From: Candidatus Levyibacteriota bacterium | Lineage (GTDB): Bacteria; Patescibacteriota; Microgenomatia; Levybacterales; UBA12049 | Length of the DNA: 64,000 bases | Reading direction: 5' to 3' | Assembly: GCA_027459725.1 (NCBI GenBank) | Contig: DAIDHK010000002.1 | Coordinates: forward strand, 105,866 to 169,865 | In this document: in pieces, positions 7,908-59,096 of the stretch | Numbering within the stretch: the stretch's first letter is position 1 | How the letters are laid out: the number at the start of each line of letters is the position of its first letter | Program-made: the position numbers and the translations under genes | The notes under the pieces: model-generated | Databases searched by the model: none | What the model was told of the DNA's origin: nothing | Seen by the model: the letters and a program-made list of their open reading frames with translations, nothing else

Positions 7908-7913
7908 ATATTA

Positions 7914-25777: not shown

Positions 25778-27268
25778 ATGAAAATAATTTACTATCTGAA
25801 ACGAAAAATAAAAAAAATAGACCATAAATTTGTTATTCCGTCTGGTTTGATAATCCTTTTCGCTGCTGCTATTAGATTCTATAACTTCCAAAATCAATGG
25901 ATTCTATGGACTGATCAGGCTTCATTTGCTCTGTTAACAAGATATGCTCTTTTTAACTTTAAACTACCCTTACTTGGTCAATTTACCTCAGCAGGTCCTT
26001 TTCAAGTTGGTGGAGAGTGGTATTGGTTTTTGATGATTGGACAGGCATTATATCCTTTCTCTTTTCTCTCACAATGGGTATGGCTAATATTACTCTATAT
26101 TCTTTTCGTTATAGTGATAATGTACTTTGCGAAACAATTAGTTGATAAAAAGTTTGCGTTGATAGTTGGTGTAATAACTGCATTTTCCCCAGCAGAAATT
26201 TATCAAGGTTTTAACCTTGAAAACCTCTCTCCAATTCCTTTTTTATCACTTTTAGCTATGGTTTTTTCTATTAGATATATACGCAAAAGTAATAGTCTAG
26301 ATTTATACTTACTTGCCTTGATTTGTGGACTAGCTCCTGCATTCCACCCTCAAGGCTTTGCTCTATTATTATTGCTCGCAACCACTTTAATACTCAAAGG
26401 TAAACCGAAATGGGTATATTTATTATGCATTCCTCTTCTCTTATTGCCGTGGCTACCTGTCTTTATCGCAGACTCTCAAAATCATTTTCATAACACTCAA
26501 AATATGATTAATTATTATTTATTCGGGCAGAATAAAATTCCACTTGATGTTTTAGGTCGAAGGTGGTCTACTTATCTTGGTGTTTTTATACCCCAATCGT
26601 GGGCATATATTGTAGGTGGATGGCCAATTTTAGCCTATTTGACCATGTTGGGAATATTATTACTAACCGTTTATAACGCTCTAAAACTCAAATTAACAAA
26701 AGAATGGTTGGTAATAATATTATCCTTCTTAATGATACTAACTCTTTTCCGATACTCACATGTCCCGCTCTTCGGTACTTATCTGCTAACCCTACACCCA
26801 TATATTATACTATTGACTGGTTATCTTATATATTTTCTGATAAACAGATATTTTCTTATAGGAATTATAAGCCTAATTATTCTAACTATTGGAAGTTTTT
26901 ACAAATATTCTAAGGGACTCGTTTCTGAAAACTACAATGCCCTTCAGGTATCTAATCTGGAAAAAGTCTTAGTAGATAAGTATCCCCACCAATCGTTTGC
27001 CATTTATGATTATCAAGATAGCGCCGTAGGTATAAGTGAAGCACTATCTCTCTACCTCTACAATGATAATAAGATTGATGATAAGGGTAAGAAAATAGGA
27101 ATAACAACCAGACAAACAGATAACTTATATAATATTTATACAGATAAAAAAGGATATACCTTAGAAGATCTCTCTGAATCAAATGATTCTAAACTAAATT
27201 CAAAAGAATGGGATTTAGTAAATCCGAGTTCAATTTATCATAAAGTGCAGGAATGGTTCAAAAATTAG
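25778..27268 (+). CDS. Polytopic membrane protein, uncharacterised GT-C-like family A (paralogs 28559 and 30021)
   Basis: 496 aa. The N-terminal loop motif TDQASF...PLLGQFTSAGPFQVGGEWYW is shared with D..RD...GP..G...FGPWYY in both paralogs. Confidence 0.6.
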   Translation: MKIIYYLKRKIKKIDHKFVIPSGLIILFAAAIRFYNFQNQWILWTDQASFALLTRYALFNFKLPLLGQFTSAGPFQVGGEWYWFLMIGQALYPFSFLSQWVWLILLYILFVIVIMYFAKQLVDKKFALIVGVITAFSPAEIYQGFNLENLSPIPFLSLLAMVFSIRYIRKSNSLDLYLLALICGLAPAFHPQGFALLLLLATTLILKGKPKWVYLLCIPLLLLPWLPVFIADSQNHFHNTQNMINYYLFGQNKIPLDVLGRRWSTYLGVFIPQSWAYIVGGWPILAYLTMLGILLLTVYNALKLKLTKEWLVIILSFLMILTLFRYSHVPLFGTYLLTLHPYIILLTGYLIYFLINRYFLIGIISLIILTIGSFYKYSKGLVSENYNALQVSNLEKVLVDKYPHQSFAIYDYQDSAVGISEALSLYLYNDNKIDDKGKKIGITTRQTDNLYNIYTDKKGYTLEDLSESNDSKLNSKEWDLVNPSSIYHKVQEWFKN

Positions 27269-27700
27269 CAAAAATGAATAGTAACTTTTCCCTGTTTGCC
27301 AAAGTAAAACAAAAAATAGTAATGAAAGTGAAGCAAACAGAGCCACGAAGGAATGCTGCATTAGAATTGTTGAACTATCTATTAACTGTGGAGAAAAAAC
27401 AGACAGGATTAACATTATTAGAAATCCCAATCTCCCGCTTTAACGAAAACCTATTAAAGACAGGACAACTAAGGTAGATACAGCACATATTCCTAATATA
27501 ATCCATGGTCCATAAAAAGTAGGGAAAATTACAAGTCCAAGCATAATTGACCATAAATAAACAGGCCCGAAAACAAAAGGCCCAGCTGAGCTGAAAGAAC
27601 CAATAAGTGGGATTGAATGTCTCATTATTGCTTCTTTAGCAATTGATAAGTCACGTCCGTTATCAACACCTATTTGAATTCAGTAAAGAAAGTTATCTAA
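27230..27700 (-). pseudogene. Frameshifted, decayed inverted copy of the N-terminal region of a family-A membrane protein
   Basis: Minus-strand fragments IGVDNGRDLSIAKEAIMRHSIPLIGSFSSAGPFVFGPVYLWSIML... (preceded by a TGA) and, in another frame, ILSVFSPQLIDSSTILMQHSFVALFASLSL. They parallel residues ~45-160 of 25778..27268. Confidence 0.45.
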
Positions 27701-28558: not shown

Positions 28559-30019
28559 CTATTTCCTCCATCCCTCTAGTGTATCACTATAAACTATTTC
28601 AGGTGTAATTAATTTCCACCCCTGATTTTGAATATCACTCCTGCTTGTGTGTGTAAGATTTATATTAATAATGGTAGCTGTAATTTTAAGAGGACAATTA
28701 AAATCTGCCATACCTAACCTAGCGCCCGAACCAGTCAGAGATAGCCTATTAGCCTGTAGCAAAAAAAACTCAATTCCCTGTGCATAATTTTGACCTCCCT
28801 TTCCACATGCATATACTGCAATTTTTTTATCGGGATACTGATGCATAAAGTTAAATGCTATAGTCCTCATAGTCAGCTGATCAACCCTAGATCTGAGGGG
28901 AATAATATCCTGTCTAATCATAAAAAATGAAAGAATTATTAATACCAATCCTGTAATAACAAAGCCAAATTTTATATTTTTCATTTTCCAAAGGGCAATT
29001 GCGAAGAAAATGAATATAAAACTATGCAAGTAAAGATAGTAATAATAGTCTCTTTGAGCTATAACGTATCTTAAAACTAAAAAGTTTATTGCAAATGTAA
29101 GCAATAAATACATATATATATGTTTTATTTTTCTCTTAAAAATAATAATCAATAATATAACTGATACGAATAGCAGTATTATTATTCCTCCTATGTAATT
29201 AATACCGAAGATATAAGACCAGAAAGGGAGCCAGAAATGAAATAAATATAACTTCCATCCATTTGGAACATATGGATGGTGTATAGCAAAGTATTCTATC
29301 CCTTTTAAAGTTTGCCCATGACTAAGAAAATTAAAAACAATTAAAGGAATCCATGGGGGCAGGAAACCTGTAATAAAAGCTAATAATCTTTTAAGTATAT
29401 TTTTATTAACAATGACAAAAAATATGATGGGTAGAACAATTAATCCCAGCATTTGATAATGAATATTAATCCCTATGCTTAGTACAAATCCCCAGAGGAA
29501 AAACCACCAGACCGAAGGTTCTTTAGCCAGATATAACTTCACAAATAGCCATATTACAATCACTGAGTATAAAGGAATTAGATCCGGATTGCTCAATCCT
29601 TGAGTTTGGCCTGTTTCAGATGGAGAAACTGCAGCCAAAAATGCCAATAGCAGACCGAACCATTTATTTTCCAGTAATTCACCTATTTTATAAAGAAATA
29701 AACTTACCAGTACTGAAGAAATACCTACCAGATACCAAGCTGAATAATAGAACGGAAAAATTATTTGCCATATAATCATTTGATAGTAATACCAAGGACC
29801 AAATGTTATAGGAGCTATACCAGATGCAGCTCCTACTAGAGGAAAACTAAAGGTTTTAGCTCCATATAAAATTATTAAAGCGTCTCTTGTAGGATCAAAA
29901 TCAAAACCATACCGGGCAGGAGTATTATAGAAGCGAAAGAAGATTGATACGAGGAGTATCAAAACCAAAAGTAGATTCGTTAGACTAAAATATTTTTTCT
30001 CTATAGTATTTATTTTCAT
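28559..30019 (-). CDS. Polytopic membrane protein, family A paralog
   Basis: ORF 28559..30094. The probable start is the internal ATG near 30019 (MKINTIEKKYF), 1 nt after the upstream stop. N-terminal loop FDPTRDALIILYG...GPWYYYQ. Confidence 0.6.
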   Translation of the reverse strand: MKINTIEKKYFSLTNLLLVLILLVSIFFRFYNTPARYGFDFDPTRDALIILYGAKTFSFPLVGAASGIAPITFGPWYYYQMIIWQIIFPFYYSAWYLVGISSVLVSLFLYKIGELLENKWFGLLLAFLAAVSPSETGQTQGLSNPDLIPLYSVIVIWLFVKLYLAKEPSVWWFFLWGFVLSIGINIHYQMLGLIVLPIIFFVIVNKNILKRLLAFITGFLPPWIPLIVFNFLSHGQTLKGIEYFAIHHPYVPNGWKLYLFHFWLPFWSYIFGINYIGGIIILLFVSVILLIIIFKRKIKHIYMYLLLTFAINFLVLRYVIAQRDYYYYLYLHSFIFIFFAIALWKMKNIKFGFVITGLVLIILSFFMIRQDIIPLRSRVDQLTMRTIAFNFMHQYPDKKIAVYACGKGGQNYAQGIEFFLLQANRLSLTGSGARLGMADFNCPLKITATIININLTHTSRSDIQNQGWKLITPEIVYSDTLEGWRK

Positions 30020-30020
30020 A

Positions 30021-31553
30021 TCAGATCTTTCTAGTTTGAACAATGATATGACCCGGAAGGGAAACTTGTTTGATAAGCTTTCCTCGTTTTTCATGAAGAG
30101 AAAGCCATGCCTGCCTTAGTGTAGGATGCGTATTATCTGGTTCTATTATATAAAACAGCAGATGACCATTATTACTGGGTTCATAATATCGTTTCCCATA
30201 AAAAGCGAACAAGTACTCATAAGTATAAGGATGTATAGGCGGTGTATAGACATCATAGTTAAATGGTCTACCAGATGCCTGAGAATAAATATACTTAATT
30301 ACTCCAGCCTGATTGTTATAGATAGAAGGATTGTTGATAAAAAAATCGGTTTTAATAGGCCTATATGAAATTAATACTCCCAGAATATACAATATTACTA
30401 AAACTATAAACAGCTTTGTATAATTATTGCTTTTTTTTCTCAGATAACAGAAAAATTTGTATATGAACAGTAATAATACAATCTCATATACGACTGGAAC
30501 TCCTACCACAAAGTGATCCCATACATTACCCTTAAAAAATGACAGAATTATAATATAAGAGAAAAGATAAGAAAGACTAAATACAATTAGCAGGTTTTCC
30601 ACACTATTAAATTTTGTTTTAGCTTTTAAATAAACTAAACCTAAAATAATAATTATCAAAATAGTAACTGCCAAAATAAACGGCATATTAACTGTTGCTT
30701 GCCATAATTGCAACATTAGACTTACTACTTTCACAAACTGTTCCGAAATTCCCCCCGATTGACTAACAGGAGCATGATGAAAAATATAATTAAACAATGC
30801 TCTAGTCATAAGGTAGTGATGTCTAATCTCAAAAAGAATTCGAGGCAATTCTATAAGCAATAGCCCTAGAATGAAAGCAGTAACATGATGAAAATTAATT
30901 TTGTTTCTTAGATAAATTAGCATAAATATAACGATTGATATAAACTGAATTGAACCATAAACTATCTCTAGTGAGTCAAAACTAAGCGCGCTCAAGATCC
31001 CGATCAGAAACATCCAAGCTGTCTTTTTAAGAGAAGATTTCTCTTCATTAAACTTTATGATCGATACAAGAATAAGTGTCAAAATTAAAGGAGCAATATT
31101 AGGATTCCATATCTGTGAAGAAGTATCTATTAAAGAGCCTGCAATACCAAAGAAAATCATAAATAGAAGTCCAGCCCATTTACCTCCTATTTTTGTACCA
31201 AGCCAGTATGCAAGCAGAACAGTGGCAATTCCAGTTAATCCCATAACAGCATCTATTCCTTTCACACTTCCTGAAAATACTATGAAAAATGGAGTAAGCA
31301 GCCAATACCACCATGGACCATAAAAAATACCCTCCTGTCCGGTTGTTGGACCAATCAGACTAATATGATGTCCATCTACAATTTGAACAATATTAAGCAT
31401 ATCCCTGCCGATATCATAAGTGTAAGCAAAAGTACCGAAAAAAGAACTTTGCAATCTTAAGAACGAGGTGACCAACAAAATTACTATAAATAACACCCAA
31501 TATGTTTTTGTAGACTTAATGAGTGGCATACATAGGTTTAATAAAATTATCAT
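30021..31553 (-). CDS. Polytopic membrane protein, family A paralog
   Basis: 510 aa. N-terminal loop YDIGRDMLNIVQ...IGPTTGQEGIFYGPWWYW. Its N-terminus overlaps the 3' end of 31516..33258. Confidence 0.6.
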   Translation of the reverse strand: MIILLNLCMPLIKSTKTYWVLFIVILLVTSFLRLQSSFFGTFAYTYDIGRDMLNIVQIVDGHHISLIGPTTGQEGIFYGPWWYWLLTPFFIVFSGSVKGIDAVMGLTGIATVLLAYWLGTKIGGKWAGLLFMIFFGIAGSLIDTSSQIWNPNIAPLILTLILVSIIKFNEEKSSLKKTAWMFLIGILSALSFDSLEIVYGSIQFISIVIFMLIYLRNKINFHHVTAFILGLLLIELPRILFEIRHHYLMTRALFNYIFHHAPVSQSGGISEQFVKVVSLMLQLWQATVNMPFILAVTILIIIILGLVYLKAKTKFNSVENLLIVFSLSYLFSYIIILSFFKGNVWDHFVVGVPVVYEIVLLLFIYKFFCYLRKKSNNYTKLFIVLVILYILGVLISYRPIKTDFFINNPSIYNNQAGVIKYIYSQASGRPFNYDVYTPPIHPYTYEYLFAFYGKRYYEPSNNGHLLFYIIEPDNTHPTLRQAWLSLHEKRGKLIKQVSLPGHIIVQTRKI

Positions 31554-33258
31554 TAAGCAGTGTGGTAATCACACTGTTTACATCATCTTTGTTAATAAAC
31601 ATATCTATATCAAGACTATATTTACTATTCTGTATTGTGGAGGTATATCTGATATTACCCTGTTGATATTGGCTCAAGGTTATATAATTAGAGTTAAGAA
31701 AATTCATAAAATAAGAACCATATTTAGTTGGGTCAGAGCCTAATATAAAATAACCCCTCTGGAAAAATATCACTTTAGGTTTATGAGCAGATATCTCAGA
31801 GATAAAACTATTTTGTATTCTTTGCGACTTACCCATTCCAGGTATTAAAATATGATATTTAGAAGCCAGTTTGCCAGTAGCATAGTAATAATCTTGAAAA
31901 TCAAGCGGCCCCATCCAAATATAATCATTTGGCCCTGAAACGGCGTTGTTTATATTGACTGCAGGATCATAAGTATCATAGATTCTTGGTGCAGTACCCA
32001 TATACTTTCCATATGCTTTACCTAAAAATCTATCTGTCAGCATAGCAATACTAAAAAAACTATAGATTAAACATAAGCTAAGAAGACCTGAAAGTATTAT
32101 CTTTTTACCTAATGCAATTTGAAGATGAAGCTCATTATATAAAGCAGAAAGGACATATACCAGAGAAATTAAAGACATGAAAATATATACGCTTGATTGA
32201 TAATCAGTTTCTCCAGAATTAAGGGGATTAGACCTTGCATTGGAATAAATCATAAAAATTATGATAAAGACAAACAAAGAATAATTTCTTCTAAAAAAGA
32301 CATAAACCAATAATGATAGATCTACTACTGCCAATGTTATGTTTAATGGGAATGGAAAATTAAAATTCTTTACTTGCACTAACAATGTATAGAAATTACT
32401 GTAAAAATTGTATGCCATTACTATGGCAAAACGAATAGGATTAATATGACCATTATGAAGATTAGGATAATTGTATATATAATACTTTTCATTAAATATG
32501 ATTGATTGATAAATATAATCTGACAAACTTCCTGTCAAAAGCAAATAAATCATAAAGACTACATAAGGAATGGCAAGGATTATGAATAAATTCACTATTT
32601 TTTTTAAATTTAAGTTGTTACGATAATCCTGAAAATAAGCCAAAAGTAAAAAAAAGTAGATAAAGGCACAAAGATAAATGTCTGTCAGTGTATTTAAAAC
32701 TGTTAATGCATTAAAAATTGAAATAATCCAAATATCTCTAAAATTTATTTTTTCTTTATAAATATATTTGAGTAGAAAAAAAACGAAAATTGCTCCCATT
32801 AAATATCCACTTAAGCTGTCTGCAATTAGCATGTGAGCCCAAAAATATGTTGCAGCAATCCCTATTAACAAAGAAAAATACAAATAAAACTTTGTAGCAA
32901 TCACACCAAAACGCGATTTCAAATATAAATACCATAAAAAAATGAATAAACTCAAGAAAATTCCATAAACAACTCTGAATCTGACAAAAGAATGGCCACT
33001 AAAGATTTGCACAAAGGCAGAAACAAAATAAGCAACAGGGCCATGATGACTAAAAAAACCACTAAAAGGCAGAACCCCATGAAGGATATACCAACCTCCT
33101 AAGAGATTATCGAATTCATCAGGATATGTTTCGTGAAAGGCGTTGATATAAAAAAGTATTAAAGTAATCGCAAAAATTACCCACTCGAAACCTGATATTC
33201 TTATACTTTTTAATCTTATTAGAATCTTATTGTTTCCAACTTTTGTAAATAAATTCAT
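31516..33258 (-). CDS. Polytopic membrane protein (GT-C-like, family unassigned)
   Basis: 580 aa. N-terminal TM region with a PDEFDN loop, then a C-terminal hydrophilic domain of ~180 aa. Confidence 0.5.
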   Translation of the reverse strand: MNLFTKVGNNKILIRLKSIRISGFEWVIFAITLILFYINAFHETYPDEFDNLLGGWYILHGVLPFSGFFSHHGPVAYFVSAFVQIFSGHSFVRFRVVYGIFLSLFIFLWYLYLKSRFGVIATKFYLYFSLLIGIAATYFWAHMLIADSLSGYLMGAIFVFFLLKYIYKEKINFRDIWIISIFNALTVLNTLTDIYLCAFIYFFLLLAYFQDYRNNLNLKKIVNLFIILAIPYVVFMIYLLLTGSLSDYIYQSIIFNEKYYIYNYPNLHNGHINPIRFAIVMAYNFYSNFYTLLVQVKNFNFPFPLNITLAVVDLSLLVYVFFRRNYSLFVFIIIFMIYSNARSNPLNSGETDYQSSVYIFMSLISLVYVLSALYNELHLQIALGKKIILSGLLSLCLIYSFFSIAMLTDRFLGKAYGKYMGTAPRIYDTYDPAVNINNAVSGPNDYIWMGPLDFQDYYYATGKLASKYHILIPGMGKSQRIQNSFISEISAHKPKVIFFQRGYFILGSDPTKYGSYFMNFLNSNYITLSQYQQGNIRYTSTIQNSKYSLDIDMFINKDDVNSVITTLLNDNFIKPMYATH

Positions 33259-33259
33259 A

Positions 33260-34936
33260 TTAACCCTTTATGACAAAAATTGCCGGTTGATTATTTAAAT
33301 AATCAATAGTTTTCAGTATATTATCTCCTTTTGTAATTTGATTTGCTCCTATTACGTATAGATATCCTTTAACCGGCTGTTTTAATTCTCTCACACTTAT
33401 CGGTCTAAATTCAAATTTTCCAAAAGCATGGTCCTGCGTATAATGTGAACCTAGTGTTTCAGAAATGTGTTGATACCTTGAGGGAGGATATTTGAGATAA
33501 AACAAAAAGAAAATATAGGACTGATCAAGAGGGACAGCATTTGATACGATAATCTTTTTATAATTATTCTGTTGAGATTGCAGATAAGGGACTAACTTTG
33601 CGTATCCATACTGCCAATCCTGGGAATTGTAATAATTATATTGTACAAAATAGTTATCTAAATAAAATGCCACATTAAACATTAAGACTAAAATAAAAAC
33701 AGCTAGAGCAAATAAGCTTATTTTTTGTCCATACTTATTTTTAATAAATTCAAATGAGGTTAATAAACCCAGAGAAATAAAGATCTGAAAAGTTGGTAAA
33801 AAATTAAGAGTTCTGACTGCATGAGGAACCTCTATAGTTACGCTTGCAGGAACGGGAGAGAGCAAAAACCATCCGAAAATAAGCCATTTTGAACGTCTAT
33901 CTACGTTCAAATAAAATAACGAATAAATACCGATAAGCAGGAATACGAAATCAGATAGATATATTAGCCCCATCTGTGGGGCATGATGCCTGGGAGCAGT
34001 ATTATCCGGCATTAGCAGCCAATTGGGATTGAAATGCATCAGGTAATTCGAAAGAATTTGTTCCGTAAGTATAACTTTTCGGTTATCTAATAATAAGCCT
34101 AATACATCATGATTTTGTTTATCCTGCAAATTTTCCATTGGAGTCATACCAAGGAGCCAAGTAACAGGTTTAGCATAAGGATTGTAAGTGGCAAAAATAT
34201 CAGTTGCAGTCAGTCTTTCTAGAGATTTTGAGTTTGAGATAGTAAATATCACCATTGGAGCAGAAAAAATAATACCGGTAACGATCAGTGCTAAAAGAAT
34301 TTTCCGGGATTTTAGTAAGATTTGTTTGTTAAAAATAATAACCAGTAACAGAAATATAAGAGGAGAAAAGACTTTTTCACTCTGATAGATATATAGATTT
34401 AATGCTGCACAAATCACAGACAGATATAAAAACCATGTTTTTTTTAAACCTTTTAAAAAGAATAGTACCGTTAATACAACAAATGTGTCACCTAACGCTG
34501 CTTCAAAAGCTACCCGGCTGAATTGCAAACTCCAAGGAGATATTGCAAGAAAAAAACTGGATAACAAAGCTAATTTTTTTCTTTTGAATAATTCGTCAAC
34601 TAAAAAGTAAGTTGCAATAACCGCCACTACACCCATTATTGCACCTGGCAAACGTACGGCAAAAACACTTAAACCAAACATAGCAATACTTGGAATTGCA
34701 AGATATGAATATAAAGCTGGTTTATAATCACCAAAGGATTCAATTACTGGAGGTAAGAACTTTCCATATTCATCATGACCAGTCATTAGTATCGAATAAG
34801 CATTATAACCAAGAGATGCTTCATCCCAATCTGGAGAGATAGGAACATTACCCAGCTGATAAAAACGTAATAGTATTGCAATTAGAACAATAAATGAAAT
34901 CAAGTAATAATGATAATATTTTTTAAAATGTTTCAT
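33260..34936 (-). CDS. GT39-family (ArnT/PMT-like) polyprenyl-P-sugar-dependent glycosyltransferase
   Basis: PDWDEASLGYNAYSILMTGHDEYGKFLP loop-1 signature. ~11 TM plus a C-terminal periplasmic domain. Confidence 0.8.
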   Translation of the reverse strand: MKHFKKYYHYYLISFIVLIAILLRFYQLGNVPISPDWDEASLGYNAYSILMTGHDEYGKFLPPVIESFGDYKPALYSYLAIPSIAMFGLSVFAVRLPGAIMGVVAVIATYFLVDELFKRKKLALLSSFFLAISPWSLQFSRVAFEAALGDTFVVLTVLFFLKGLKKTWFLYLSVICAALNLYIYQSEKVFSPLIFLLLVIIFNKQILLKSRKILLALIVTGIIFSAPMVIFTISNSKSLERLTATDIFATYNPYAKPVTWLLGMTPMENLQDKQNHDVLGLLLDNRKVILTEQILSNYLMHFNPNWLLMPDNTAPRHHAPQMGLIYLSDFVFLLIGIYSLFYLNVDRRSKWLIFGWFLLSPVPASVTIEVPHAVRTLNFLPTFQIFISLGLLTSFEFIKNKYGQKISLFALAVFILVLMFNVAFYLDNYFVQYNYYNSQDWQYGYAKLVPYLQSQQNNYKKIIVSNAVPLDQSYIFFLFYLKYPPSRYQHISETLGSHYTQDHAFGKFEFRPISVRELKQPVKGYLYVIGANQITKGDNILKTIDYLNNQPAIFVIKG

Positions 34937-34937
34937 A

Positions 34938-36584
34938 CTAATCAGTATATGCCACTAAAGCCACACTACCGTCTAAATTATCAAATTTTTTCTGAACTTT
35001 TGCATTAGTAGGTACCTTGTCTGGTACATCAATGTATAGTACTTTTTTATTTTTATTAGGCATAGACTGTAAATTACTACCAAAATAATACTTGCCAAAA
35101 CTCTCTATAGTCACAAAGCCAAAGGCATCTCTGTGAATGACTGCCTCTTTACGATAAAGAGAAGGTGGTGTCTGCATATAGAAAAGATAATAAATATACG
35201 GCCTACCTAAAGAGTTTGTCATATCAATTTGGTTATAGCTACTCTGTACAGAACTAACATACGCCACCGTTTGTTCATATCCATATTGCCACTCCTGAGA
35301 ATATTCATAGGGGTAATGGGTAATATAACTGTGAATAAACTTAGTCATCTCAAAAAGCATTAATAATCCAAGCAAAAACAGAATGGTTTTACCACTGATA
35401 TATTTTGCAAATTTTTTATCTCTAATAAAAAGGATAAACTCTACCAGTCCATAAGCAATAATAATTTGATATGTCGGCAAGATGACTTCCGTCCTCAGAG
35501 CATGAGGGGTTTCACGAGCTGTAGAAGCTGGTATCAAACCTATTAAAATCCAGATAGGTATTATCCACCAATAATCTTTTTTTTGTCTAAATAACAAGAT
35601 CAAACCCAGTATGAGGAAAGGAATACACCAGATAAAAAGCTCTCCTGTCGTCTGGATAGAAAATTTGGGATTATAATCACCTTTAAAGAAAAGATAAGAG
35701 GGATTAAATTCATCAAGATAATGTTGTATGAATGCTTGAGTGTAAAATACTCTTCTGTTATGAATTATTTTACTCCACCAGGCGTTATGATCATTGGCTA
35801 TTTCCTGATTGCTGGTTTGAACCAGGCTGGGATCACTAAAAATATTAACCTCGTCAAATCTTATTTTTGCTTGAGGAGAAAGTAAAAAGGGCACAACAGG
35901 AGCAAGTAAAATAATACCTAATAATATCGCTAAAATCATTTGCTTTTTTCTGGTAAAAAATTTCTTCCATAAAAATAAAGCCAAAACAATAATAAAAATC
36001 GGCAAAAAAACACGCGGAGAGTTAAAAGTATAAAATGGAACTACTAAAAGTACTGCCGCTAATAAAAGCAACCACTTTCGTTCCTGCAATCCCGCCAGAA
36101 GAGCCCACATCCCGGATATTATGAAGAAAGTGGCCACATTCGCTTCAAAGGCTGCCCTTGAAAGCATAATATTCCAGGGAGAAATTGCTAAAACAAAACT
36201 TGAAAAGATGGCATACAAATATTTTTTCTTGCTGTTAGGAAATAAACGCAGGACTAGAAAATAAGTAAAAAACACCGAACCAATGCCTGCCAGAGCGGAA
36301 GGCAAACGGGTAGAAAACCTATCTAGTCCTAACACCTTGACTGGCAAAACATCCAAATATGCATAAACTGGTGGTTTGTAATCCCCAAAGGATTCAAGAT
36401 ATGTCACTGGCAAGAATTTACCAAACTCATCTTTCCCATCAATCCCGATGGTATATGCATTGTATCCCCAAGCTGCCTCATCCCAAGTCAGTTCAGGTGG
36501 ATTATTCCCTAATCCAATTATACGCAGTAGTGCTGCCACTACTGTAATAATTATTAGAATAATAATGTATCTATTTATCTTCAT
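34938..36584 (-). CDS. GT39-family glycosyltransferase (tandem paralog)
   Basis: LTWDEAAWGYNAYTIGIDGKDEFGKFLP. Confidence 0.8.
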   Translation of the reverse strand: MKINRYIIILIIITVVAALLRIIGLGNNPPELTWDEAAWGYNAYTIGIDGKDEFGKFLPVTYLESFGDYKPPVYAYLDVLPVKVLGLDRFSTRLPSALAGIGSVFFTYFLVLRLFPNSKKKYLYAIFSSFVLAISPWNIMLSRAAFEANVATFFIISGMWALLAGLQERKWLLLLAAVLLVVPFYTFNSPRVFLPIFIIVLALFLWKKFFTRKKQMILAILLGIILLAPVVPFLLSPQAKIRFDEVNIFSDPSLVQTSNQEIANDHNAWWSKIIHNRRVFYTQAFIQHYLDEFNPSYLFFKGDYNPKFSIQTTGELFIWCIPFLILGLILLFRQKKDYWWIIPIWILIGLIPASTARETPHALRTEVILPTYQIIIAYGLVEFILFIRDKKFAKYISGKTILFLLGLLMLFEMTKFIHSYITHYPYEYSQEWQYGYEQTVAYVSSVQSSYNQIDMTNSLGRPYIYYLFYMQTPPSLYRKEAVIHRDAFGFVTIESFGKYYFGSNLQSMPNKNKKVLYIDVPDKVPTNAKVQKKFDNLDGSVALVAYTD

Positions 36585-38299
36585 TGAGTATCACCAACTA
36601 TAAATACAACTTGTCCATCATGATTATATATGGTTTTCAAATAATGAAGTTGGTTTTTATCAGATGCATATTCCGCAGGAGAAAGAGCAACTAGAATATG
36701 TTTGGCACCCGCAAATTTTTGTAAATTTACGTTATCTAACTCGCTTCTTCCCTGATCTTTATCCCATTGTGTACCTCCAAATACATACTTTCCAAAGGCT
36801 GTTTTATTACCATACTTTTGATACAGTGAAGGACTATACTTTTTGTAAAACAAAAAATATATATAAGGCTGCCAATAATGTCCACTTACTATCAATTTTT
36901 GATATTTATATTCTTTAGGTATCATATATTGAGTCAACTGTTTGTAGCCATCGGCCCAGTCAGGAGCTGTGGTTTTTGCCGTCAAAACATAGTATAGATA
37001 TAGATAGTTGATAAAGAATCCGATCACAATTACTACCATAGTTATAGCGAAAACTTTTTTAAATACAGCTCGTGTGATAAGTTCATAGGTTAGGTACAAA
37101 CCTATTCCAGTTAAGATCTGAGGTAATGGAAGTATATTTAAATCTCGCAAAGCATGTGGATTAGGCGTAGAGACAGCAGCAGGTATGGGTGAGGTTAACA
37201 ACCAAAGGAAAAAAAGATATTTAAATTTTCCTTTAATTTTAAATAGTATAAAAAACAAACCAATAAAGATAAACGGGATTTCCCATAGATACAATAAGCC
37301 CATACCTCGAGGACTATGCCTACCATTGGGATCACCAGAAACAAAATAAAATTGTGGACTAAAATTAGATATATAATTCGTAAAAATCGCTTCAGGGATA
37401 ACCAGTCTTTGGTTATAGATTATTTTGTTAATTATGCCACCCCGTGCACGCAAATTTGCATCTTGTATCTGCTGTTGAGTTGAATTATTAAATACGTCCA
37501 CCTGAGCTGCTCTTGTCATTCCTTGTTTTGAGAGCATCACGGGCACAAAAGGAGCTAAAACAGCTAAAAAGATTGTTATCCCAATTATTGTTATAAAAAG
37601 TTGTTTTCTATATGTTAATTCTTTATAGAATATAATAAACATTCCTAAAAGAAGCAACGGTACAAAAACCCAAATACTACGATAAAAATAAAAATTGATA
37701 CTGAATAGGAAGATAGAGAGGAAAAAATTCCAAATTCTTTTAAGTCTAAAATACCTAAGGAATAACCAAACAGCTGCCACATTAAACACGACCGCGACAT
37801 TTGCTTCGAAACCAGCACGCGAGAACTGAATGTGCCAGGGTGAGATTGCTAACATAAAAGAACTTAAAATCCCTACCATATCACGATTTATTTTGATTTT
37901 CTTCTTAAATAATTCAAAATCATCCGAATTATTCAAATTTAATAGTTCTTTGACTAGATAAAAGGTAAGCATTACAGTAATAGTTCCTGCGAGGGCAGAA
38001 GTAAAGCGAGCTGAAAATTCATTAAGACCAAATATTGATACCGCTATAGCAGTTAGATAAATATTTCCGGAAGCTTTATAGTCATCAAATGATCTAAACA
38101 ACAGTGGAAACGGAGTACCATACTCATCTTTTCCTGTAAGAGCAATAGAGTAAGCATTATACGTAGAAGCAGCTTCGTCCCAATAGAGAGAGACGGGAAC
38201 TTTGCTGATATTGTAGAAGCGTAAAAAGGCTGCCAGTAGAACAATTAAACCTAAACTGAAAAATACTATCTGTTTTTTATTTTTTATAAATATAGTCAT
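36581..38299 (-). CDS. GT39-family glycosyltransferase (tandem paralog)
   Basis: LYWDEAASTYNAYSIALTGKDEYGTPFP. Confidence 0.8.
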   Translation of the reverse strand: MTIFIKNKKQIVFFSLGLIVLLAAFLRFYNISKVPVSLYWDEAASTYNAYSIALTGKDEYGTPFPLLFRSFDDYKASGNIYLTAIAVSIFGLNEFSARFTSALAGTITVMLTFYLVKELLNLNNSDDFELFKKKIKINRDMVGILSSFMLAISPWHIQFSRAGFEANVAVVFNVAAVWLFLRYFRLKRIWNFFLSIFLFSINFYFYRSIWVFVPLLLLGMFIIFYKELTYRKQLFITIIGITIFLAVLAPFVPVMLSKQGMTRAAQVDVFNNSTQQQIQDANLRARGGIINKIIYNQRLVIPEAIFTNYISNFSPQFYFVSGDPNGRHSPRGMGLLYLWEIPFIFIGLFFILFKIKGKFKYLFFLWLLTSPIPAAVSTPNPHALRDLNILPLPQILTGIGLYLTYELITRAVFKKVFAITMVVIVIGFFINYLYLYYVLTAKTTAPDWADGYKQLTQYMIPKEYKYQKLIVSGHYWQPYIYFLFYKKYSPSLYQKYGNKTAFGKYVFGGTQWDKDQGRSELDNVNLQKFAGAKHILVALSPAEYASDKNQLHYLKTIYNHDGQVVFIVGDTQ

Positions 38300-38322: not shown

Positions 38323-39033
38323 TCAATTTATAAATCTGTATTTCAAAAGCGTCCAGAGAGCTATGGGTCCTTCCTTCCATGCATGTAATTTTTTACCCTC
38401 ACTATAGTCTCGTGGTTTGGTGGTTATAGAAATTTCCTTAATTTTATATCCTAGCTTTAATAATTTAGCAGTTATTTCCGGTTCAAATGCAAAACCACGC
38501 GACTCTAATTTCATTTTTGATACTGCTGCTTTTGGGAATAACTTATAACAAGTTTCCATATCAGTTAACCACTGTCCATAGAGCATGCTTGTAAACAGAC
38601 TTAGAAATCTATTACCAAAATAATGTGAAAAGAAAAGAAGAGTACGTTCATCTTTACCAAAGTTAGGCATTCTGTTCAATCTGGTTCCATAAACTACACT
38701 ATCTTTACTATTATTAACTACTGATAATAGTTTTTTTATATCTTCAGGATTATATTCCGTATCAGCATCCTGGATTACAATATAATCACCAGTTGCGTGC
38801 TCTACTCCGGTTCTTATGGCAGCTCCTTTACCCATATTTCTCTCATGGAAATATATTTTCATGCCATTAACTTTTGCTTTTTTAATTTTTTCTTTTGAAG
38901 TATCCTTTGAACCATCATCCACAACGATTATCTCTTTTTCAAAATCATCAAGTTTCAGATCCTCTACCTTTTTAAGTACTTCAGAAATTGTTTTTTGTTC
39001 GTTATATACTGGGATAATAATTGATAATTTCAT
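38323..39033 (-). CDS. DPM1-like polyprenyl-phosphate sugar synthase (soluble GT2)
   Basis: LSIIIPVYNEQKTI, VVDDGSKDTS and IQDADTEYNP. It lies immediately upstream of the GT39 triplet. Confidence 0.75.
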   Translation of the reverse strand: MKLSIIIPVYNEQKTISEVLKKVEDLKLDDFEKEIIVVDDGSKDTSKEKIKKAKVNGMKIYFHERNMGKGAAIRTGVEHATGDYIVIQDADTEYNPEDIKKLLSVVNNSKDSVVYGTRLNRMPNFGKDERTLLFFSHYFGNRFLSLFTSMLYGQWLTDMETCYKLFPKAAVSKMKLESRGFAFEPEITAKLLKLGYKIKEISITTKPRDYSEGKKLHAWKEGPIALWTLLKYRFIN

Positions 39034-39994: not shown

Positions 39995-42229
39995 TTATAA
40001 TAAGCTTATCTTGTATTCTAGCGTATGGGTGCCAGCGGGAACAAGTACTCCTCTATAATTATAATCTGTCCGGTAAATTTTAGCCTGTTTACCATCAATA
40101 TATACCTGCCATGTGGGGTAGTAACTATCGGTTAGAACAACAAATCCTGGATGTGCATTTTTAGTGATTAAAATAATTTTATTAGCGGTATAAGTCTCTA
40201 TTTTTACCTTACCTTTTAGGATATTTTGTTGTTTAAATTTAGAGTCATTAATCACTGCGTTATTTAAAAGATTAACTTGTAGTGTTGTTGATAGATCTTC
40301 ATTTTCTGTTTTTGTATTAATAACTTTACTGACCATAAAAGCTCGTGGGAATACGTTTTTATTTTGATAAACATATGTATATCCGTCATTATAAACTTTT
40401 TGTAGTCCCGGAGAGTTAAGAGTTTTATTGAGTGAAAGAATATATTTTACTCCAAGAAAGTTCCTCAAAGATGGTGTTATGGGCTCAGCAGTAAATATCC
40501 TATTAAAGGGCAATTTTGTTTGATATTTTTTATATCCAATATTCCGTGCGATTAACTGCCCATAATTTTTTAAATACAATGGATCATATCCATCTATTGA
40601 CTGCAATCCATACATTACGGAGATATCCGGAGGCATGATCATATTATTATCAGTAGTATACCTGTAGTTGCCAATATTAGACTGCAAAAATTTCAAAACA
40701 GCTGTCGATGGATATACATATACTTTATTCGTAAAAGACAAAAACTTATCTGCAAATCTTAAAAGATCAAAGGATGTGATCAAAATTAAGGCAATAACAA
40801 TTAAGAATATATATTTTTGTTTAATAAATAGATGACTTGTTAAAATAATAAATATATTCAAAGTGATTAAACCTACCGGCAGGTAAAGATTGTGTTCGGT
40901 TACACTAAGATCTGTGGCTGGAACAATATGTTTGACAAAAGTAAAAAATACCATAACTATAGTAAATAGAATCATTATTAACACAGGTAGATAAATTTTC
41001 TTACTTTTTCCATTTATAAACATTTCCATACCAAAAGCAGCAAGCATAATCAATGAAAAATCAATTAAACTATTCAATCTAGTAGGTTGAGAAGTGGAGA
41101 TAACTGGTACCGCTAGTTGGTATGGCAAGAATGAAATAACTGAGGGTAAAGCAAATAATAGTCCTACAAGTGTCCATGTAGAGAAAAATTTTACATACCA
41201 GTTTTTGATATTAGTAAATCCTAACAGAGCAAAAAATAATGGGCTAATCCCTATATATCCCACGAATTCTCCATAATTCCACACTCCCCAATAATTAAGA
41301 GTTGTGGGATTACCAAAGTAATCAGGAGCTAAATACTGAATAAGATTTTGCCATGGTATAAACCACCCTGCTTTATGCCAATCTTGTTGATCAAGAGTTC
41401 TAGCTGAAAGTGTTACAAAATGTAAAAATGGATACCATTGTATGAAAGTCAAAATAAGAAAGATGATGAATAATAAGACGAATAATGTAATTATCTTTAT
41501 TTTATTTTTATAGTGCCAAATTTTTAGTATAAAATAAGAAAAAACCATTAGTGATATGTAAAAGAACACTTGAGTATGACCGGCAAGAAAGCTCGATGTT
41601 AGTGAAAAAACGAATATTATACTCCAGATCAGACGCTTTTTATTCTGATGTATTAATATTTTTTCAATGGACAATAAAAGTACAGGCAGCCACAAAAAAG
41701 TCTGTATCACTGTGTTCCATTCATACCACGCTACAACAAAACCACAGAAACTGATAGTCAGTGAACCAAAGACCTGACTAAACAGATTGAGCTTTAAGAA
41801 TCTTAAATAAAGAAATGTAAAAAATGATAACAATACAGTTTGCAATAACACCTGAATACTCCATCCCTGTAAAAAGGGAGAAATTAAATAGATGATATTC
41901 AAAGGATAGAATACACCTGTTTGGAAATTAGCAAGAAGAGGTGTACCGGTAAAAGAATATGGATTCCACAATGGTAAGTTGCCTGAGCTTAATAGGTTAA
42001 GGCTAAGTTTTCTCCATGGATATTGTTGACGAAATGGATCAGTAATTAAAGAATTTTTGTAGGCTATACCATTTGGGTTGGTAGCTACATATATATCTCT
42101 AAAAGGGTAATAAATACCTATCATAGCATCGGCTGGGAATGGAACCTTTCCTCTAATAAGAAAAGGACTAGCAAAGATCGTAAATACTAATAATAAAAAA
42201 ACTATGGCTATTATTAAACGTTTCTTCAT
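39995..42229 (-). CDS. YfhO-like GT-C membrane glycosyltransferase
   Basis: 744 aa. N-terminal loop GKVPFPADAMIGIYYPFR...LWNPY, ~13 TM, and a C-terminal extracytoplasmic domain ending ...VPAGTHTLEYKISLL. Assigned by recalled family features, not by search. Confidence 0.5.
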   Translation of the reverse strand: MKKRLIIAIVFLLLVFTIFASPFLIRGKVPFPADAMIGIYYPFRDIYVATNPNGIAYKNSLITDPFRQQYPWRKLSLNLLSSGNLPLWNPYSFTGTPLLANFQTGVFYPLNIIYLISPFLQGWSIQVLLQTVLLSFFTFLYLRFLKLNLFSQVFGSLTISFCGFVVAWYEWNTVIQTFLWLPVLLLSIEKILIHQNKKRLIWSIIFVFSLTSSFLAGHTQVFFYISLMVFSYFILKIWHYKNKIKIITLFVLLFIIFLILTFIQWYPFLHFVTLSARTLDQQDWHKAGWFIPWQNLIQYLAPDYFGNPTTLNYWGVWNYGEFVGYIGISPLFFALLGFTNIKNWYVKFFSTWTLVGLLFALPSVISFLPYQLAVPVISTSQPTRLNSLIDFSLIMLAAFGMEMFINGKSKKIYLPVLIMILFTIVMVFFTFVKHIVPATDLSVTEHNLYLPVGLITLNIFIILTSHLFIKQKYIFLIVIALILITSFDLLRFADKFLSFTNKVYVYPSTAVLKFLQSNIGNYRYTTDNNMIMPPDISVMYGLQSIDGYDPLYLKNYGQLIARNIGYKKYQTKLPFNRIFTAEPITPSLRNFLGVKYILSLNKTLNSPGLQKVYNDGYTYVYQNKNVFPRAFMVSKVINTKTENEDLSTTLQVNLLNNAVINDSKFKQQNILKGKVKIETYTANKIILITKNAHPGFVVLTDSYYPTWQVYIDGKQAKIYRTDYNYRGVLVPAGTHTLEYKISLL

Positions 42230-46634: not shown

Positions 46635-48086
46635 CTATTTCTTTATTTTAAGAAACTCCAAGGTTTTTCTCAACTCCTCTTGTGAAATTATATAAAGTAT
46701 AGCAGCATATACTCCAACTGCAATGGAGGCAAACATAATAAACAGCAAAAAGTTAACTATCAACGGCTGAATAAGATATGAAAATCCCATCATCAAAGCC
46801 GCTGCTAAAAATGGTTTTATTAATGGTCTCCAAAATGAGTAAGTTACATATTGTTTCGTAAAAGGCAAAACGACTAGTAAACTTGCTGCCACGATGAATG
46901 AAGCTAATGATACACCGTTATAGCCATAATAATGAATAAATAGAGGAGTTAATATCCACGTCAAAACTGTTAAGAATACCATTGAATAAAGTGTTACCTT
47001 AACTTTACCTATAGCATTAAGGAAATTGGTCAAAGGTACCGTAATGGAAGCAAATAATATATTTAATGAAAAATAGAAAATCGAAATAACTGCTGGAATC
47101 CATTTTGTATAACCTGGAATCGGTACATAAACAATAAACGAATGTGAAAACATCATAAAACCTATAACTAACGGAAATACACAAGCAGAGATTAAGAACA
47201 AGGACTGCTCTATAATAATTTTTAGCGATTCTTTACTATGTTGAAGTCGGCTATAGGCAGGGAATGTAATCCGGACGACATTATCCATGATTAGATTAGA
47301 AGGTAAAAACGAAAGTTTCTGTGCAAATCCAATGATTCCCACATCTCCATGTGATAACACCTTTCCGATATAAAGATTCACTAAGTTATCTTTAAGCAAT
47401 GATAGCAAACTATTGGCTTGCAAAGGAATGCCAAATCCAAATAGATCTTTAATGGTCTTAAAATGAAAAGAAATCCCCAATCTCCATGGCTGGATATAGT
47501 AGATTACAAAAAGTCCTATTATGCTCCTGGCAAGGATTGCAATACTAAAACTGGTAATCCCATAATGCATAAGTGCCATAACAATCAATACTACATTGTA
47601 AACAAGATTTTCTACGATATCCGGTACGACAAGTTTATTAAAAAGCAAATGGCGCTCAAGCATCACTGTTGGTATGGTCTTTAAAGAGGAGATAAAAAAC
47701 GAGATTACTAAAGAAAAAAACAAAAGCGTCCCCTGACTATCCAAATGATAAAACCCCACTATCTTCGTAGAAAAAATAAAACATATAACCACAAGAATCA
47801 AAACTAAAAGTTGCTGAACGGTAAATGTAGCTCTATATTCCTCTAGAGTAGGTTCTTCTTTTTTTTGAATAAGCGACGCCGCCAGACCTATATCCTGAAA
47901 GTACACTAAAAACACAACTATTGATGAAGCGATGAAATAAATTCCAAAATCTTGTTTACTTAATATACTTGTTAAGACAAAGCTAGTAACGATACTTAAA
48001 ACTTTAATCAAAAAAGTACGCGAGGTTAACGCGGAAAATCCCTTTAACGACTTACTGGCAACTGCTTGTAGGTCAAAATCTTCCAT
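46635..48086 (-). CDS. Wzx-like (MOP) polysaccharide flippase
   Basis: 483 aa and ~14 TM. Its N-terminal region follows the polysaccharide-biosynthesis-protein pattern (SKQDFGIYFIASSIVVFLVYF...). Confidence 0.7.
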   Translation of the reverse strand: MEDFDLQAVASKSLKGFSALTSRTFLIKVLSIVTSFVLTSILSKQDFGIYFIASSIVVFLVYFQDIGLAASLIQKKEEPTLEEYRATFTVQQLLVLILVVICFIFSTKIVGFYHLDSQGTLLFFSLVISFFISSLKTIPTVMLERHLLFNKLVVPDIVENLVYNVVLIVMALMHYGITSFSIAILARSIIGLFVIYYIQPWRLGISFHFKTIKDLFGFGIPLQANSLLSLLKDNLVNLYIGKVLSHGDVGIIGFAQKLSFLPSNLIMDNVVRITFPAYSRLQHSKESLKIIIEQSLFLISACVFPLVIGFMMFSHSFIVYVPIPGYTKWIPAVISIFYFSLNILFASITVPLTNFLNAIGKVKVTLYSMVFLTVLTWILTPLFIHYYGYNGVSLASFIVAASLLVVLPFTKQYVTYSFWRPLIKPFLAAALMMGFSYLIQPLIVNFLLFIMFASIAVGVYAAILYIISQEELRKTLEFLKIKK

Positions 48087-48786
48087 TTTTTAAATCCCAC
48101 CAGAGAATAAGGCTCTCTAGAACCGCCCTAACAACGACAGGAACATTTGCTCCTGTAGGCTTCCCATGTAGTCTTGGATAATGCTCTACACCCACTTGTG
48201 TAATCTTTAATTTCTTTATGGTTGCTTTTGCCAATATTTCAGTTGTAATCATTGCCCCTTCTGATCTAAGTGGCATAATTGACTCCAGTGCACTTTTCCT
48301 AAACATCTTAAATCCACAATCTATATCTTTAAAATGAAAATGAAACAACATAAAATCCCAAATTTTAAGCAGATTCATTAGTAAATGTCTAGCCAACGGA
48401 TCCTTTCGAGACTTACGATAGCCAATAACCATATCAGATTTTTGTATAGCGGCTATAAATTTATCTATTTCTGTAATATCAAATTGTCCGTCGCCGTCTG
48501 TAAAAACAACAAATTCATATTTAGAATTTATGAATCCTTCTTTAAGTGAAGCACCGTATCCTCTATTTGGGTGATGCGAGATTACTTTTAATCTACCATC
48601 TTTAACTGTTAATTTTTTCGCTATATCTAGTGTTTTATCTATGGAGCCATCATCTACCATCAGAATCTCCCACTTAGTTGCCACTTTATCTGCAACTTTA
48701 ATGGCATTGTTAACAACTTCTTCAATGTTTTCTTCCTCGTTCCAAAATGGAAAAAAAATTGATAACTCAGGTAACATTTCACTCAT
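48073..48786 (-). CDS. DPM1-like polyprenyl-phosphate sugar synthase (soluble GT2)
   Basis: LSIFFPFWNEEENI, MVDDGSIDKT and FTDGDGQ. Confidence 0.75.
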   Translation of the reverse strand: MSEMLPELSIFFPFWNEEENIEEVVNNAIKVADKVATKWEILMVDDGSIDKTLDIAKKLTVKDGRLKVISHHPNRGYGASLKEGFINSKYEFVVFTDGDGQFDITEIDKFIAAIQKSDMVIGYRKSRKDPLARHLLMNLLKIWDFMLFHFHFKDIDCGFKMFRKSALESIMPLRSEGAMITTEILAKATIKKLKITQVGVEHYPRLHGKPTGANVPVVVRAVLESLILWWDLKNGRF

Positions 48787-58949: not shown

Positions 58950-59022
58950 GGCCCCATCGTCTAGTGGTCTAGGACAGTGGATTCTCATTCCACTAACTGG
59001 GATTCGAATTCCCATGGGGTCA
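58950..59022 (+). tRNA. tRNA-Glu (anticodon CUC)
   Basis: Folded by hand. Acceptor GGCCCCA/TGGGGTC with one G-U, U8, D-arm GTCT/AGTGGTCTA/GGAC, anticodon stem GTGGA/TCCAC, loop TTCTCAT with U33 and A37, variable TAAC, T-arm TGGGA/TTCGAAT/TCCCA, discriminator A. CCA is not encoded. Confidence 0.8.
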
Positions 59023-59096
59023 CACCAATATTTAGCCTCAAGCACAGATTTTGTTTCGTGACTTATTTATGCCTGCACCCACTTCAATTCGAACAC
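59015..59096. repeat. Repeat copy 1: last 8 nt of tRNA-Glu plus ~75 bp downstream flank
   Basis: gggtcacaccaatatttagcctcaa...gtttcgtgacttatttatgcctgcacccacttcaattcgaacac. It recurs at 61982..62059 (first 25 nt 21/25 identical) and partially at 60610..60668 (44-nt core 34/44 identical). Confidence 0.55.

Follow-up and report, generated by a model that had tools for sequence, protein, structure and literature searches.

The combination of a polyprenyl-phosphate (Pren-P) sugar synthase, a flippase (including those of the MATE/MOP type) and a glycosyltransferase (GT) of the GT-C kind is an established three-component principle (PMC11127046). In the GtrA/GtrB/Gtr*, CsbB/GtcA/YfhO and C. youngae ORF15/ORF14/ORF12 systems, a synthase of family GT2 and a GT-C protein are encoded in one transcription unit, and a comparable arrangement is found in the locus described here. 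The locus lies in a 64-kb stretch (hereafter the window; G+C approximately 32%) of contig DAIDHK010000002.1 from Candidatus Levyibacteriota bacterium (assembly GCA_027459725.1), where three adjacent genes for GT-C proteins of 558, 548 and 572 amino acids, designated A, B and C and transcribed in the order C, B, A, follow a gene for a small Pren-P-sugar-synthase-like protein of 236 amino acids (GT2-236) within a 58-kb surface-glycan island (Table 1). This island also contains flippase candidates, and a YfhO-family gene lies two genes upstream. The locus differs from the three-component systems in that its synthase is without the C-terminal transmembrane (TM) helices of GtrB, ArnC and CsbB, in that no gene of the GtrA/GtcA type occurs in the island, and in that the single GT-C of those systems is replaced by family arrays; GT-C genes in the window total 18 and come from several families. 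To judge from sequence comparison, A, B and C belong to a single ArnT-like GT-C family, in which each represents an old lineage of its own.

Several characterised proteins resemble parts of this locus. ArnT (GT83), the undecaprenyl-phosphate-4-amino-4-deoxy-L-arabinose (Ara4N):lipid A transferase (structures 5ezm and 5f15), is structurally closer to the family than the PMT proteins are, but it shares only 13% identity and has 13 TM helices, against approximately 11 in our model of A. In a search of PDB sequences with the family profile, ArnT (5ezm_A) was the only protein returned, at an E value of 0.64, which puts the family at a great sequence distance from all solved structures, and no ArnT model was among the NCBIfam matches. 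The Ara4N pathway genes (ArnA, ArnB and ArnD) are without counterparts in the window, and Pfam detected no aminotransferase, formyltransferase or deformylase domain in any of its open reading frames (ORFs). Patescibacteria are monoderm and are not known to have lipid A, so the acceptor must differ from that of ArnT. The GT39 PMTs (Pmt1-Pmt2, Pmt4 and bacterial PMT) share with the family the GT-C_A fold and a DE motif that we take to be the same as that of PMT loop 1. A and the family member encoded at 52133 also match the PMT model PF02366, and the pairing of B with A recalls Pmt1-Pmt2. However, none of the paralogues matches the PMT_4TMC module or the MIR domain in Pfam at E≤0.01, and the C-terminus in the model of A is instead a soluble α/β domain (residues 437-558).

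For GT2-236, a likeness exists to mycobacterial PpgS (Rv3631; GT-C Rv3779), a short polyprenyl-phosphate-GalNAc synthase whose model of 226 positions aligns with residues 5-214, although GT2-236 scores below the equivalog cut-off and its host is not an actinobacterium. In mycobacteria, a single glycan is worked on by a succession of many different GT-Cs (PimE, Mpt, Emb, Aft) at the outer side of the membrane, as in lipomannan, lipoarabinomannan and arabinogalactan. The haloarchaeal Agl22/Agl23 module likewise combines a small dolichyl-phosphate-hexose synthase with a PMT_2-like membrane protein; it differs in being archaeal, in its dolichol carrier and in the description of Agl23 as a flippase, and the matches to it here are below threshold. 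In H. hispanica, Agl23 is a putative hexose-phosphate-dolichol flippase; once purified and placed in liposomes, it translocated a lipid-linked oligosaccharide (PMC11182771).

The original prediction of three adjacent, homologous genes with a catalytic Asp/Glu loop agrees with what we found. All three lie on the minus strand and score above the Pfam gathering threshold of PMT_2 (PF13231, 26.1 bits), and the proteins align pairwise over approximately 510-550 residues at 33-35% identity, far beyond chance (BLASTP E values 1.5e-73 to 1.5e-84). The predicted loop signature is present in each of them, with a correction to its spacing: WDE is followed by four residues, not two, and then by YNAY.I...G.DE.G. 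Two more GT39 copies had also been proposed, and one of these, encoded at 52133, is a true fourth member, 27-30% identical to A, B and C over its full length (E 1e-47 to 1e-52) and a singleton in orthologue clustering. The other, encoded at 53842, is only a remote PMT_2 relative that matches A in its N-terminal part (25% identity, E 7.6e-7; hhalign probability 94% over 142 residues). In addition, that inventory was incomplete, since 13 further GT-C-superfamily genes of the window had gone unmentioned. PF02366 was matched above its cut-off of 22.7 bits by A (28.9 bits) and the 52133 protein (29.2 bits), whereas B and C gave no match at E≤0.01. Only one NCBIfam model, TIGR03663 ("flippase activity-associated protein Agl23"), was matched by the family, in each case below threshold, at E values of 4.3e-14 for A, 2.6e-7 for the 52133 protein and 0.002 for C, with none for B. 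For A this match reaches 52 bits against a cut-off of 126 and covers only residues 13-212, the generic N-terminal GT-C core.

Homologues of A number more than 4,800; the named ones come from Levybacteria, Roizmanbacteria and metagenome-assembled genomes labelled "Patescibacteria group", and databases call them either "Ara4N transferase-like" or "glycosyltransferase family 39 protein". When 1.84 billion cluster representatives (50% identity) were searched by profile, 5,959 matched at E≤1e-30, all of approximately 530-600 amino acids with a single matched stretch. For comparison of gene neighbourhoods we used 80 species-representative loci recovered from Levybacteria, Gottesmanbacteria, Roizmanbacteria and Woesebacteria. 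The third-party annotation record titles of L003, L013, L015 and about 35 more of these loci read "uncultured Gammaproteobacteria bacterium", and that of L029 reads "Candidatus Limnocylindrales"; such titles look like mislabels, the gene content being Levybacteria-like.

In this set each of A, B and C forms its own orthogroup, with orthologues 45-86% identical in other Microgenomates. Orthogroup A has exactly one member in every one of the 80 loci. Orthogroup B is represented once in 76 of them; its gene invariably adjoins A on the upstream side, in the same orientation, and most commonly overlaps it by 4 bp. Among the four loci without B, the gene is cut by a contig end or frameshifted in three, and in L052 A itself stands at a contig end. 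In L079, the gene clustered with A resembles a downstream A-derived copy, and a divergent family member occupies the A and B positions. In L019 the B orthologue (8537-9951) is broken, the tblastn match stopping at residue 384 and restarting at 477 at another position, so that the gene is either truly a pseudogene or the victim of a frameshift or an error in assembly. The C clade comprises at least 120 database clusters (43-78% identity), all nearest to clade p23, and a C orthologue adjoins the B-A pair in only four of the sampled loci. Members of A share a median identity of 50% and those of B one of 54%, compared with a median of 35% and a maximum of 42% between the two groups. In the neighbour-joining tree, B, C and A have bootstrap values of 100%, 97% and 52%, respectively, the last value being low because the accessory clades p25 and p26 branch beside A; these sit directly downstream of A in other genomes and look like later duplicates of it. 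The higher identity within orthogroups than between neighbours, together with the separate clades, indicates that the A/B/C splits predate the radiation of these lineages.

Counted within 10 kb to each side of A, the loci carry one to six family copies, usually two to five. The accessory copies number 101 in 27 clusters, of which 63 lie upstream and 35 downstream of A. Across the sampled Microgenomates the backbone reads GT4, YfhO, GT2-316, GT2-236, variable GT-Cs, B, A, variable GT-Cs, GT2-253 and epimerase. The B-A pair is fixed in this sample, C and the remaining copies being accessory and differing from genome to genome. In the closest available relative (GCA_027459745.1, locus L001) the gene order is preserved, the orthologues of A, B and C being 75%, 86% and 78% identical, respectively, and the three genes directly downstream of A have their orthologues there in unchanged order. 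This relative carries an extra family gene of 561 amino acids (6648-8333) between its C and B orthologues; an array member has therefore been gained or lost between two loci whose orthologues are 75-86% identical. Relative to L001, synonymous sites are saturated (proportion of differences, pS, 0.76-0.78) and nonsynonymous differences (pN) amount to 0.09-0.14; the overall signal is one of purifying selection.

The AlphaFold2 model of A, built from 57 sequences, has a pLDDT of 86.6 and a pTM of 0.88. Foldseek returned only GT-C proteins for it at E≤1e-3, and its structural neighbours are all transferases, among them ArnT, AftA, AftB, AftD, Emb, PimE, Pmt1-Pmt2 and Pmt4, with PMT scoring lower than ArnT. 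The predicted structure has the architecture of the GT-C_A class (ArnT/PMT/STT3-like), a multi-pass TM core with extracytoplasmic elements. Short turns rich in lysine and arginine on the side assigned as cytoplasmic (KRKK, KGLKK, NKQILLKSRK, DRRSK and KNKYGQK) place the first external loop (EL1, residues 26-90), the loop 235-326 and the C-terminal α/β domain on the outside, following the positive-inside rule. D38 and E39 lie directly after TM1, at the start of the first outer-loop helix (37-52). In a set of 257 full-length family members from the loci (80 A, 76 B and 101 accessory), D38, E39, R24 and R141 are conserved in 100%, and R95 and R375 in 100% of A and B and in 99% and 98%, respectively, of the accessory copies. 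D55/E56, D70, K72, H372 and W441 are kept in at least 95% of A and B but less strictly in the accessory copies. Judged by these residues every copy seems capable of catalysis, and none is an obvious pseudoenzyme. The idea that B or C might be inactive was rejected, as D38/E39, R141 and R375 are kept in the copies.

The paralogues were predicted to diverge in their C-terminal domains, a view that our regional comparison does not bear out. Among the window paralogues, which are 27-35% identical overall, identity is 42-60% in EL1, 24-34% in the C-terminal domain and 14-27% in residues 245-326. The C-terminal domain is 45-47% identical within orthogroups and 29% between them, no more divergent than the rest, and was discarded as the main site of divergence. 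The loop 245-326, in contrast, is 51% identical within A and 63% within B but 28% between the two. Such conservation within groups, coupled with divergence between them, makes this long outer loop the best candidate for a specificity determinant as far as sequence can indicate; by position it presumably corresponds to the flexible substrate-gating loop of ArnT and PglB.

Both GT2 genes that were predicted to sit directly upstream on the same strand do so: GT2-236 lies 23 bp upstream of C and is overlapped by 4 bp by the gene for GT2-316. Spacing along the array and these two genes ranges from −4 to +23 bp, which fits one transcription unit; a scan for consensus promoters and terminators at 27-46 kb gave counts at shuffle level and hence no signal either way. 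GT2-236 had been described as a soluble DPM1-like synthase, and that assignment holds in essence. It has no TM segment, and the PDB entries that match it best in sequence are P. furiosus DPMS (4.9e-16), ArnC and GtrB. The top 25 Foldseek matches of its AlphaFold2 model (pLDDT 85) are all ArnC, DPMS or GtrB, at query-normalised TM-scores of 0.61-0.75, with ArnC and DPMS reaching 0.71-0.75 over the whole protein (approximately 240 columns). The predicted fold is of the GT-A type and its DxD motif is DAD (89-91), D89 being invariant and D91 at least 90% conserved, and homologues across Microgenomates are 61-69% identical and all of approximately 236 amino acids. Two predicted helices, at 132-152 (LLFFSHYFGNRFLSLFTSMLY, mean hydrophobicity 0.41) and at the C-terminus (218-234), are placed where ArnC, DPMS and GtrB have interface helices. 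The predicted structure therefore gives good support to a TM-less Pren-P sugar synthase, for which "monotopic" is a better description than "soluble".

In NCBIfam, GT2-236 gave no equivalog-level match to AglJ, PpgS, ArnC or PgfS: AglJ (7.5e-33, 114 against 325 bits), PpgS (3.7e-21, 75.6 against 370 bits), PgfS and ArnC are all below cut-off, as is the haloarchaeal dolichyl-phosphate hexose transferase model (1.3e-16). Fifty-nine of the 80 loci had enough upstream sequence for counting, and an orthologue of GT2-236 is found upstream of A in 43 of them and a YfhO gene in 36. The proposed grouping of donor synthase and transferases into a module is reasonable in view of this recurrence and of the synthase-like fold, and the position of GT2-236 directly upstream supports, by context, the use of a polyprenyl-phosphate-linked donor by A, B and C. 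GT2-316, whose best NCBIfam matches are MftF/EpsD-like and which adjoins the small GT2 in relatives too, looks from its sequence like an ordinary cytoplasmic GT2 rather than a synthase of the lipid-donor type. The YfhO protein upstream of it is linked to those at 48783 and 50474 by profile comparison (hhalign 99.4-99.5%).

We consider the best explanation, with a probability of roughly 0.65, to be that A, B and C are old GT-C lineages in an island for the stepwise assembly of a cell-surface glycan outside the cytoplasmic membrane. The comparisons above show the homology, the GT-C fold, the conservation of the motif, the fold of GT2-236, the synteny and the variation in copy number; from the context we infer the donor, the acceptor, the order of action and the flippase as follows. 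GT2-236 would bind the cytoplasmic face of the membrane through its hydrophobic interface helices and use a nucleotide sugar to glycosylate polyprenyl phosphate. The lipid-linked monosaccharide would then be flipped outward, the candidates being the two MOP-family flippases of the island or a GT-C-like protein of the Agl23 type. Each GT-C paralogue would use Asp38-Glu39 to attach the sugar at one particular site of an acceptor outside the membrane. The likeliest acceptor is a lipid- or wall-linked glycan produced by the cytoplasmic GT2 and GT4 enzymes of the island, a surface protein being another possibility. B and A would act as a fixed pair in a conserved core step, and C and the other copies as exchangeable, lineage-specific decoration.

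Several observations weigh against this explanation. In many relatives, variable GT-C genes separate the small GT2 from B-A, so it is not necessarily dedicated to A, B or C. The island has five candidate donor synthases for 18 GT-Cs, and more than one pairing is conceivable. The island has no GtrA-sized ORF or gap anywhere, and Pfam scans of the window revealed neither a priming phosphoglycosyltransferase nor an LCP ligase. As A matches nothing in NCBIfam but the Agl23 model, and this below threshold, some copies might conceivably be translocators. Finally, the family is common and already annotated, yet no characterised member was found.

Among the other explanations, a recent, local tandem triplication with neofunctionalised C-terminal domains, as originally predicted, would account for three adjacent, co-directional and homologous genes, and the p25 and p26 clades offer examples of later duplication of A. 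Pairwise comparison and phylogeny nevertheless make it extremely improbable and led us to reject it: orthologues are 75-86% identical in L001 and 45-60% identical across the phylum-level group, as against 33-35% between the neighbours, A and B nowhere exceed 42% identity, and the three genes belong to separate clades. A different possibility is that B and A form an obligate hetero-oligomer like yeast Pmt1-Pmt2 and thus constitute one enzyme rather than two steps, which would explain their fixed adjacency. The position of B directly upstream of A in 76 of 80 loci (three of the exceptions being artefacts), the common 4-bp overlap suggestive of translational coupling, the residues kept in both proteins, including D55/E56, D70, K72, H372 and W441, and the presence of Pmt1-Pmt2 and Pmt4 dimers as solved GT-C oligomers among the structural neighbours are all consistent with it. 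However, no fused B-A protein occurs in the 80 loci or the 150 best representatives, the mirror-tree correlation of A with B (r 0.73) is similar to those of other gene pairs of the cluster (B with the small GT2, 0.78; A with YfhO, 0.66), and consecutive steps of one pathway would explain adjacency equally well, so that we regard an obligate hetero-oligomer as unlikely.

The family could also consist of PMT-like protein O-glycosyltransferases of GT39 that decorate secreted, S-layer or pilus proteins. The PF02366 scores of A and the 52133 protein, the database name "glycosyltransferase family 39 protein" and the DE motif, which is that of PMT loop 1, favour such a role, but B and C are without PF02366, no paralogue has PMT_4TMC and ArnT is the closer structure. 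Moreover, the island is rich in genes of the polysaccharide type (Wzx-like flippases, a Wzy_C-like gene, GT4s, methyl- and acetyltransferases) and Pfam scans found no candidate gene for a substrate protein in it, which leaves protein O-glycosylation doubtful. Some paralogues, with A the best candidate, might instead or in addition be Agl23-like translocators and so fill the flippase role. This would be in keeping with TIGR03663 as sole NCBIfam match, with the haloarchaeal dolichyl-phosphate hexose transferase match of the small GT2, with the translocation activity of H. hispanica Agl23 in liposomes (PMC11182771) and with the lack of a GtrA-type gene in the island. Because the match is weak and partial, the structural neighbours are all transferases and the island already has two MOP flippases, such a function appears decidedly improbable. 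Lastly, it is conceivable, if quite speculative, that B-A is a two-subunit GT-C machine, either a heterodimer like Pmt1-Pmt2 or a transferase with an Agl23-like partner that delivers or translocates the sugar, dedicated to an invariant core glycan found throughout Microgenomates, with the flanking GT-Cs as hypervariable cassettes that diversify the surface between strains.

Table 1. Positions of the array, its neighbours and other features of the island in the window (aa, amino acids).
Feature	Position	Strand	Basis
Paralogue A, ArnT-like GT-C (PMT_2), 558 aa, core orthogroup	33260-34936	minus	PMT_2 43.7 bits
Paralogue B, ArnT-like GT-C, 548 aa, partner directly upstream of A	34938-36584	minus	PMT_2 33.9 bits, 4.6e-8
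Paralogue C, ArnT-like GT-C, 572 aa, accessory orthogroup	36581-38299	minus	PMT_2 29.2 bits, 1.2e-6
GT2-236, small Pren-P sugar synthase-like GT2, 236 aa, presumed donor synthase	38323-39033	minus	Sequence and predicted fold
GT2-316, soluble GT2 of ordinary nucleotide-sugar transferase type, 316 aa	39030-39980	minus	Pfam Glycos_transf_2 4.6e-21; no TM segment
YfhO-family GT-C, 744 aa, conserved upstream backbone gene	39995-42229	minus	Pfam YfhO 1.8e-17
Fourth family member, 567 aa, QDE instead of WDE	52133-53836	minus	PMT_2 41.1 bits, 2.8e-10
Distant PMT_2-type GT-C, 513 aa, separate subfamily	53842-55383	minus	PMT_2 41.3 bits, 2.4e-10
Co-directional surface-glycan island, 58 kb	1153-58832	minus (almost every gene)	Pfam and hhalign network
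Three GT-C-superfamily genes directly downstream of A	31516-33258, 30021-31553, 28559-30094	minus	hhalign
Second module	46635-52129	minus	Pfam, NCBIfam; genes overlap 4 to 14 bp
Second module, PTPS_related/YfhO-like GT-Cs	50474-52129, 48783-50477	minus	Pfam
Second module, small Pren-P-type GT2	48073-48786	minus	NCBIfam PgfS/AglJ/ArnC-like
Second module, MOP-family flippase	46635-48086	minus	Pfam
MOP-family flippase	22370-23638	minus	Pfam Polysacc_synt_3 3.4e-11
Small Pren-P-type GT2 overlapping flippase 22370-23638	21643-22389	minus	Pfam Glycos_transf_2, NCBIfam

The wider island contains 18 GT-C-superfamily genes, 13 GT2 genes (five of the Pren-P-synthase type, at 38323, 48073, 58059, 21643 and 4556), six GT4 genes and a fragment, three methyltransferases, an acetyltransferase, an epimerase and two MOP flippases. 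GT-C-superfamily membership was assigned by Pfam and by profile-profile comparison with hhalign. Beyond the four family members, the GT-C genes are PMT_2-like (53842, 28559, 30021 and, on the plus strand, 25778 and 55467) or of the YfhO/PTPS_related type (39995, 48783 and 50474), the remainder being those at 56801 (GT87), 31516, 44114, 5555, 7914 and, with a weaker link (82%), 15989. Directly downstream of A, 30021 (98.6%) and 28559 (94.9%) are connected to the family profile by hhalign, and 31516 to 30021 (94.9%) and 44114 (99.1%). Large multi-TM ORFs cover approximately 60% of the island, and in related loci of at least 20 kb the surroundings of the B-A pair hold a median of nine such genes per 21.6 kb (range 5-12).

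Both MOP flippases (Polysacc_synt_3) overlap a TM-less Pren-P-synthase-like GT2 by 14-20 bp, neither adjoins GT2-236, and the 22370/21643 pair recurs in L027, L033, L034, L036, L047, L067 and L077. Rather than being classical Wzx genes, the two flippases may form modules with these GT2s in which lipid-linked monosaccharides are made and flipped. The GT2 at 4556 has two TM helices and is ArnC-like at 4.6e-44. At 25778-27268, a GT-C gene is inverted onto the plus strand and followed by a gap of 527 bp (to 27795), in which a minus-strand ORF of 61 amino acids (27440-27625) resembles the N-terminal loop region of the inverted gene's product and is probably, to judge by this resemblance, the remnant of a decayed GT-C paralogue. 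The corresponding position in L001 holds two intact same-strand GT-C genes of 525 and 522 amino acids. Near the left end, the ORF at 1-1152 (minus strand) runs off the window with 384 amino acids visible and matches Wzy_C below cut-off (E 2.8e-5); its product could be a polymerase or ligase of the same glycan pathway. The ORF at 3794-4333 (179 amino acids) contains only an N-terminal GT4 domain (Glyco_transf_4) and stands ahead of a full-length GT4 (2658-3791). As the same split arrangement is present in L029, with products 55-56% identical, it may be a genuine stand-alone half-glycosyltransferase rather than a fragment. The membrane protein of 1173 amino acids encoded at 7914-11435 has a weak AftD-type GT-C match (E 5.7e-4) and a paralogue of 695 amino acids at 5555-7642 (hhalign 97.5%), both linked to the YfhO/PTPS_related group by profile comparison only. 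A tRNA-Glu(CTC) gene (58950-59023) marks the end of the island, and beyond it lie genes for an AAA_14/DUF4143 ATPase (59310-60497) and a PIN-domain protein (61233-61646).

In summary, the system is an uncharacterised case of a known kind, that of a GT-C and a Pren-P-sugar synthase, and its individual parts are mechanistically not new. Our literature searches found no description of this island or of GT-C arrays in Patescibacteria, and in the literature searched both the B-A pair that is fixed across the sampled Microgenomates and the hypervariable GT-C cassettes around it are undescribed. The genomes of Patescibacteria are of approximately 1 Mb and encode almost no biosynthesis. The share of the island taken up by large membrane proteins, together with the same pattern in relatives, indicates that extracytoplasmic glycan assembly is a major, conserved investment of these bacteria, whose cell surface mediates a presumed epibiotic lifestyle. 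The B-A pair and the TM-less synthase provide well-defined conserved targets for biochemistry, and surface differences between strains may originate in the variable GT-C cassettes. Should B and A prove to be a two-subunit machine, those cassettes could serve host attachment or phage evasion in epibiotic ultra-small bacteria.

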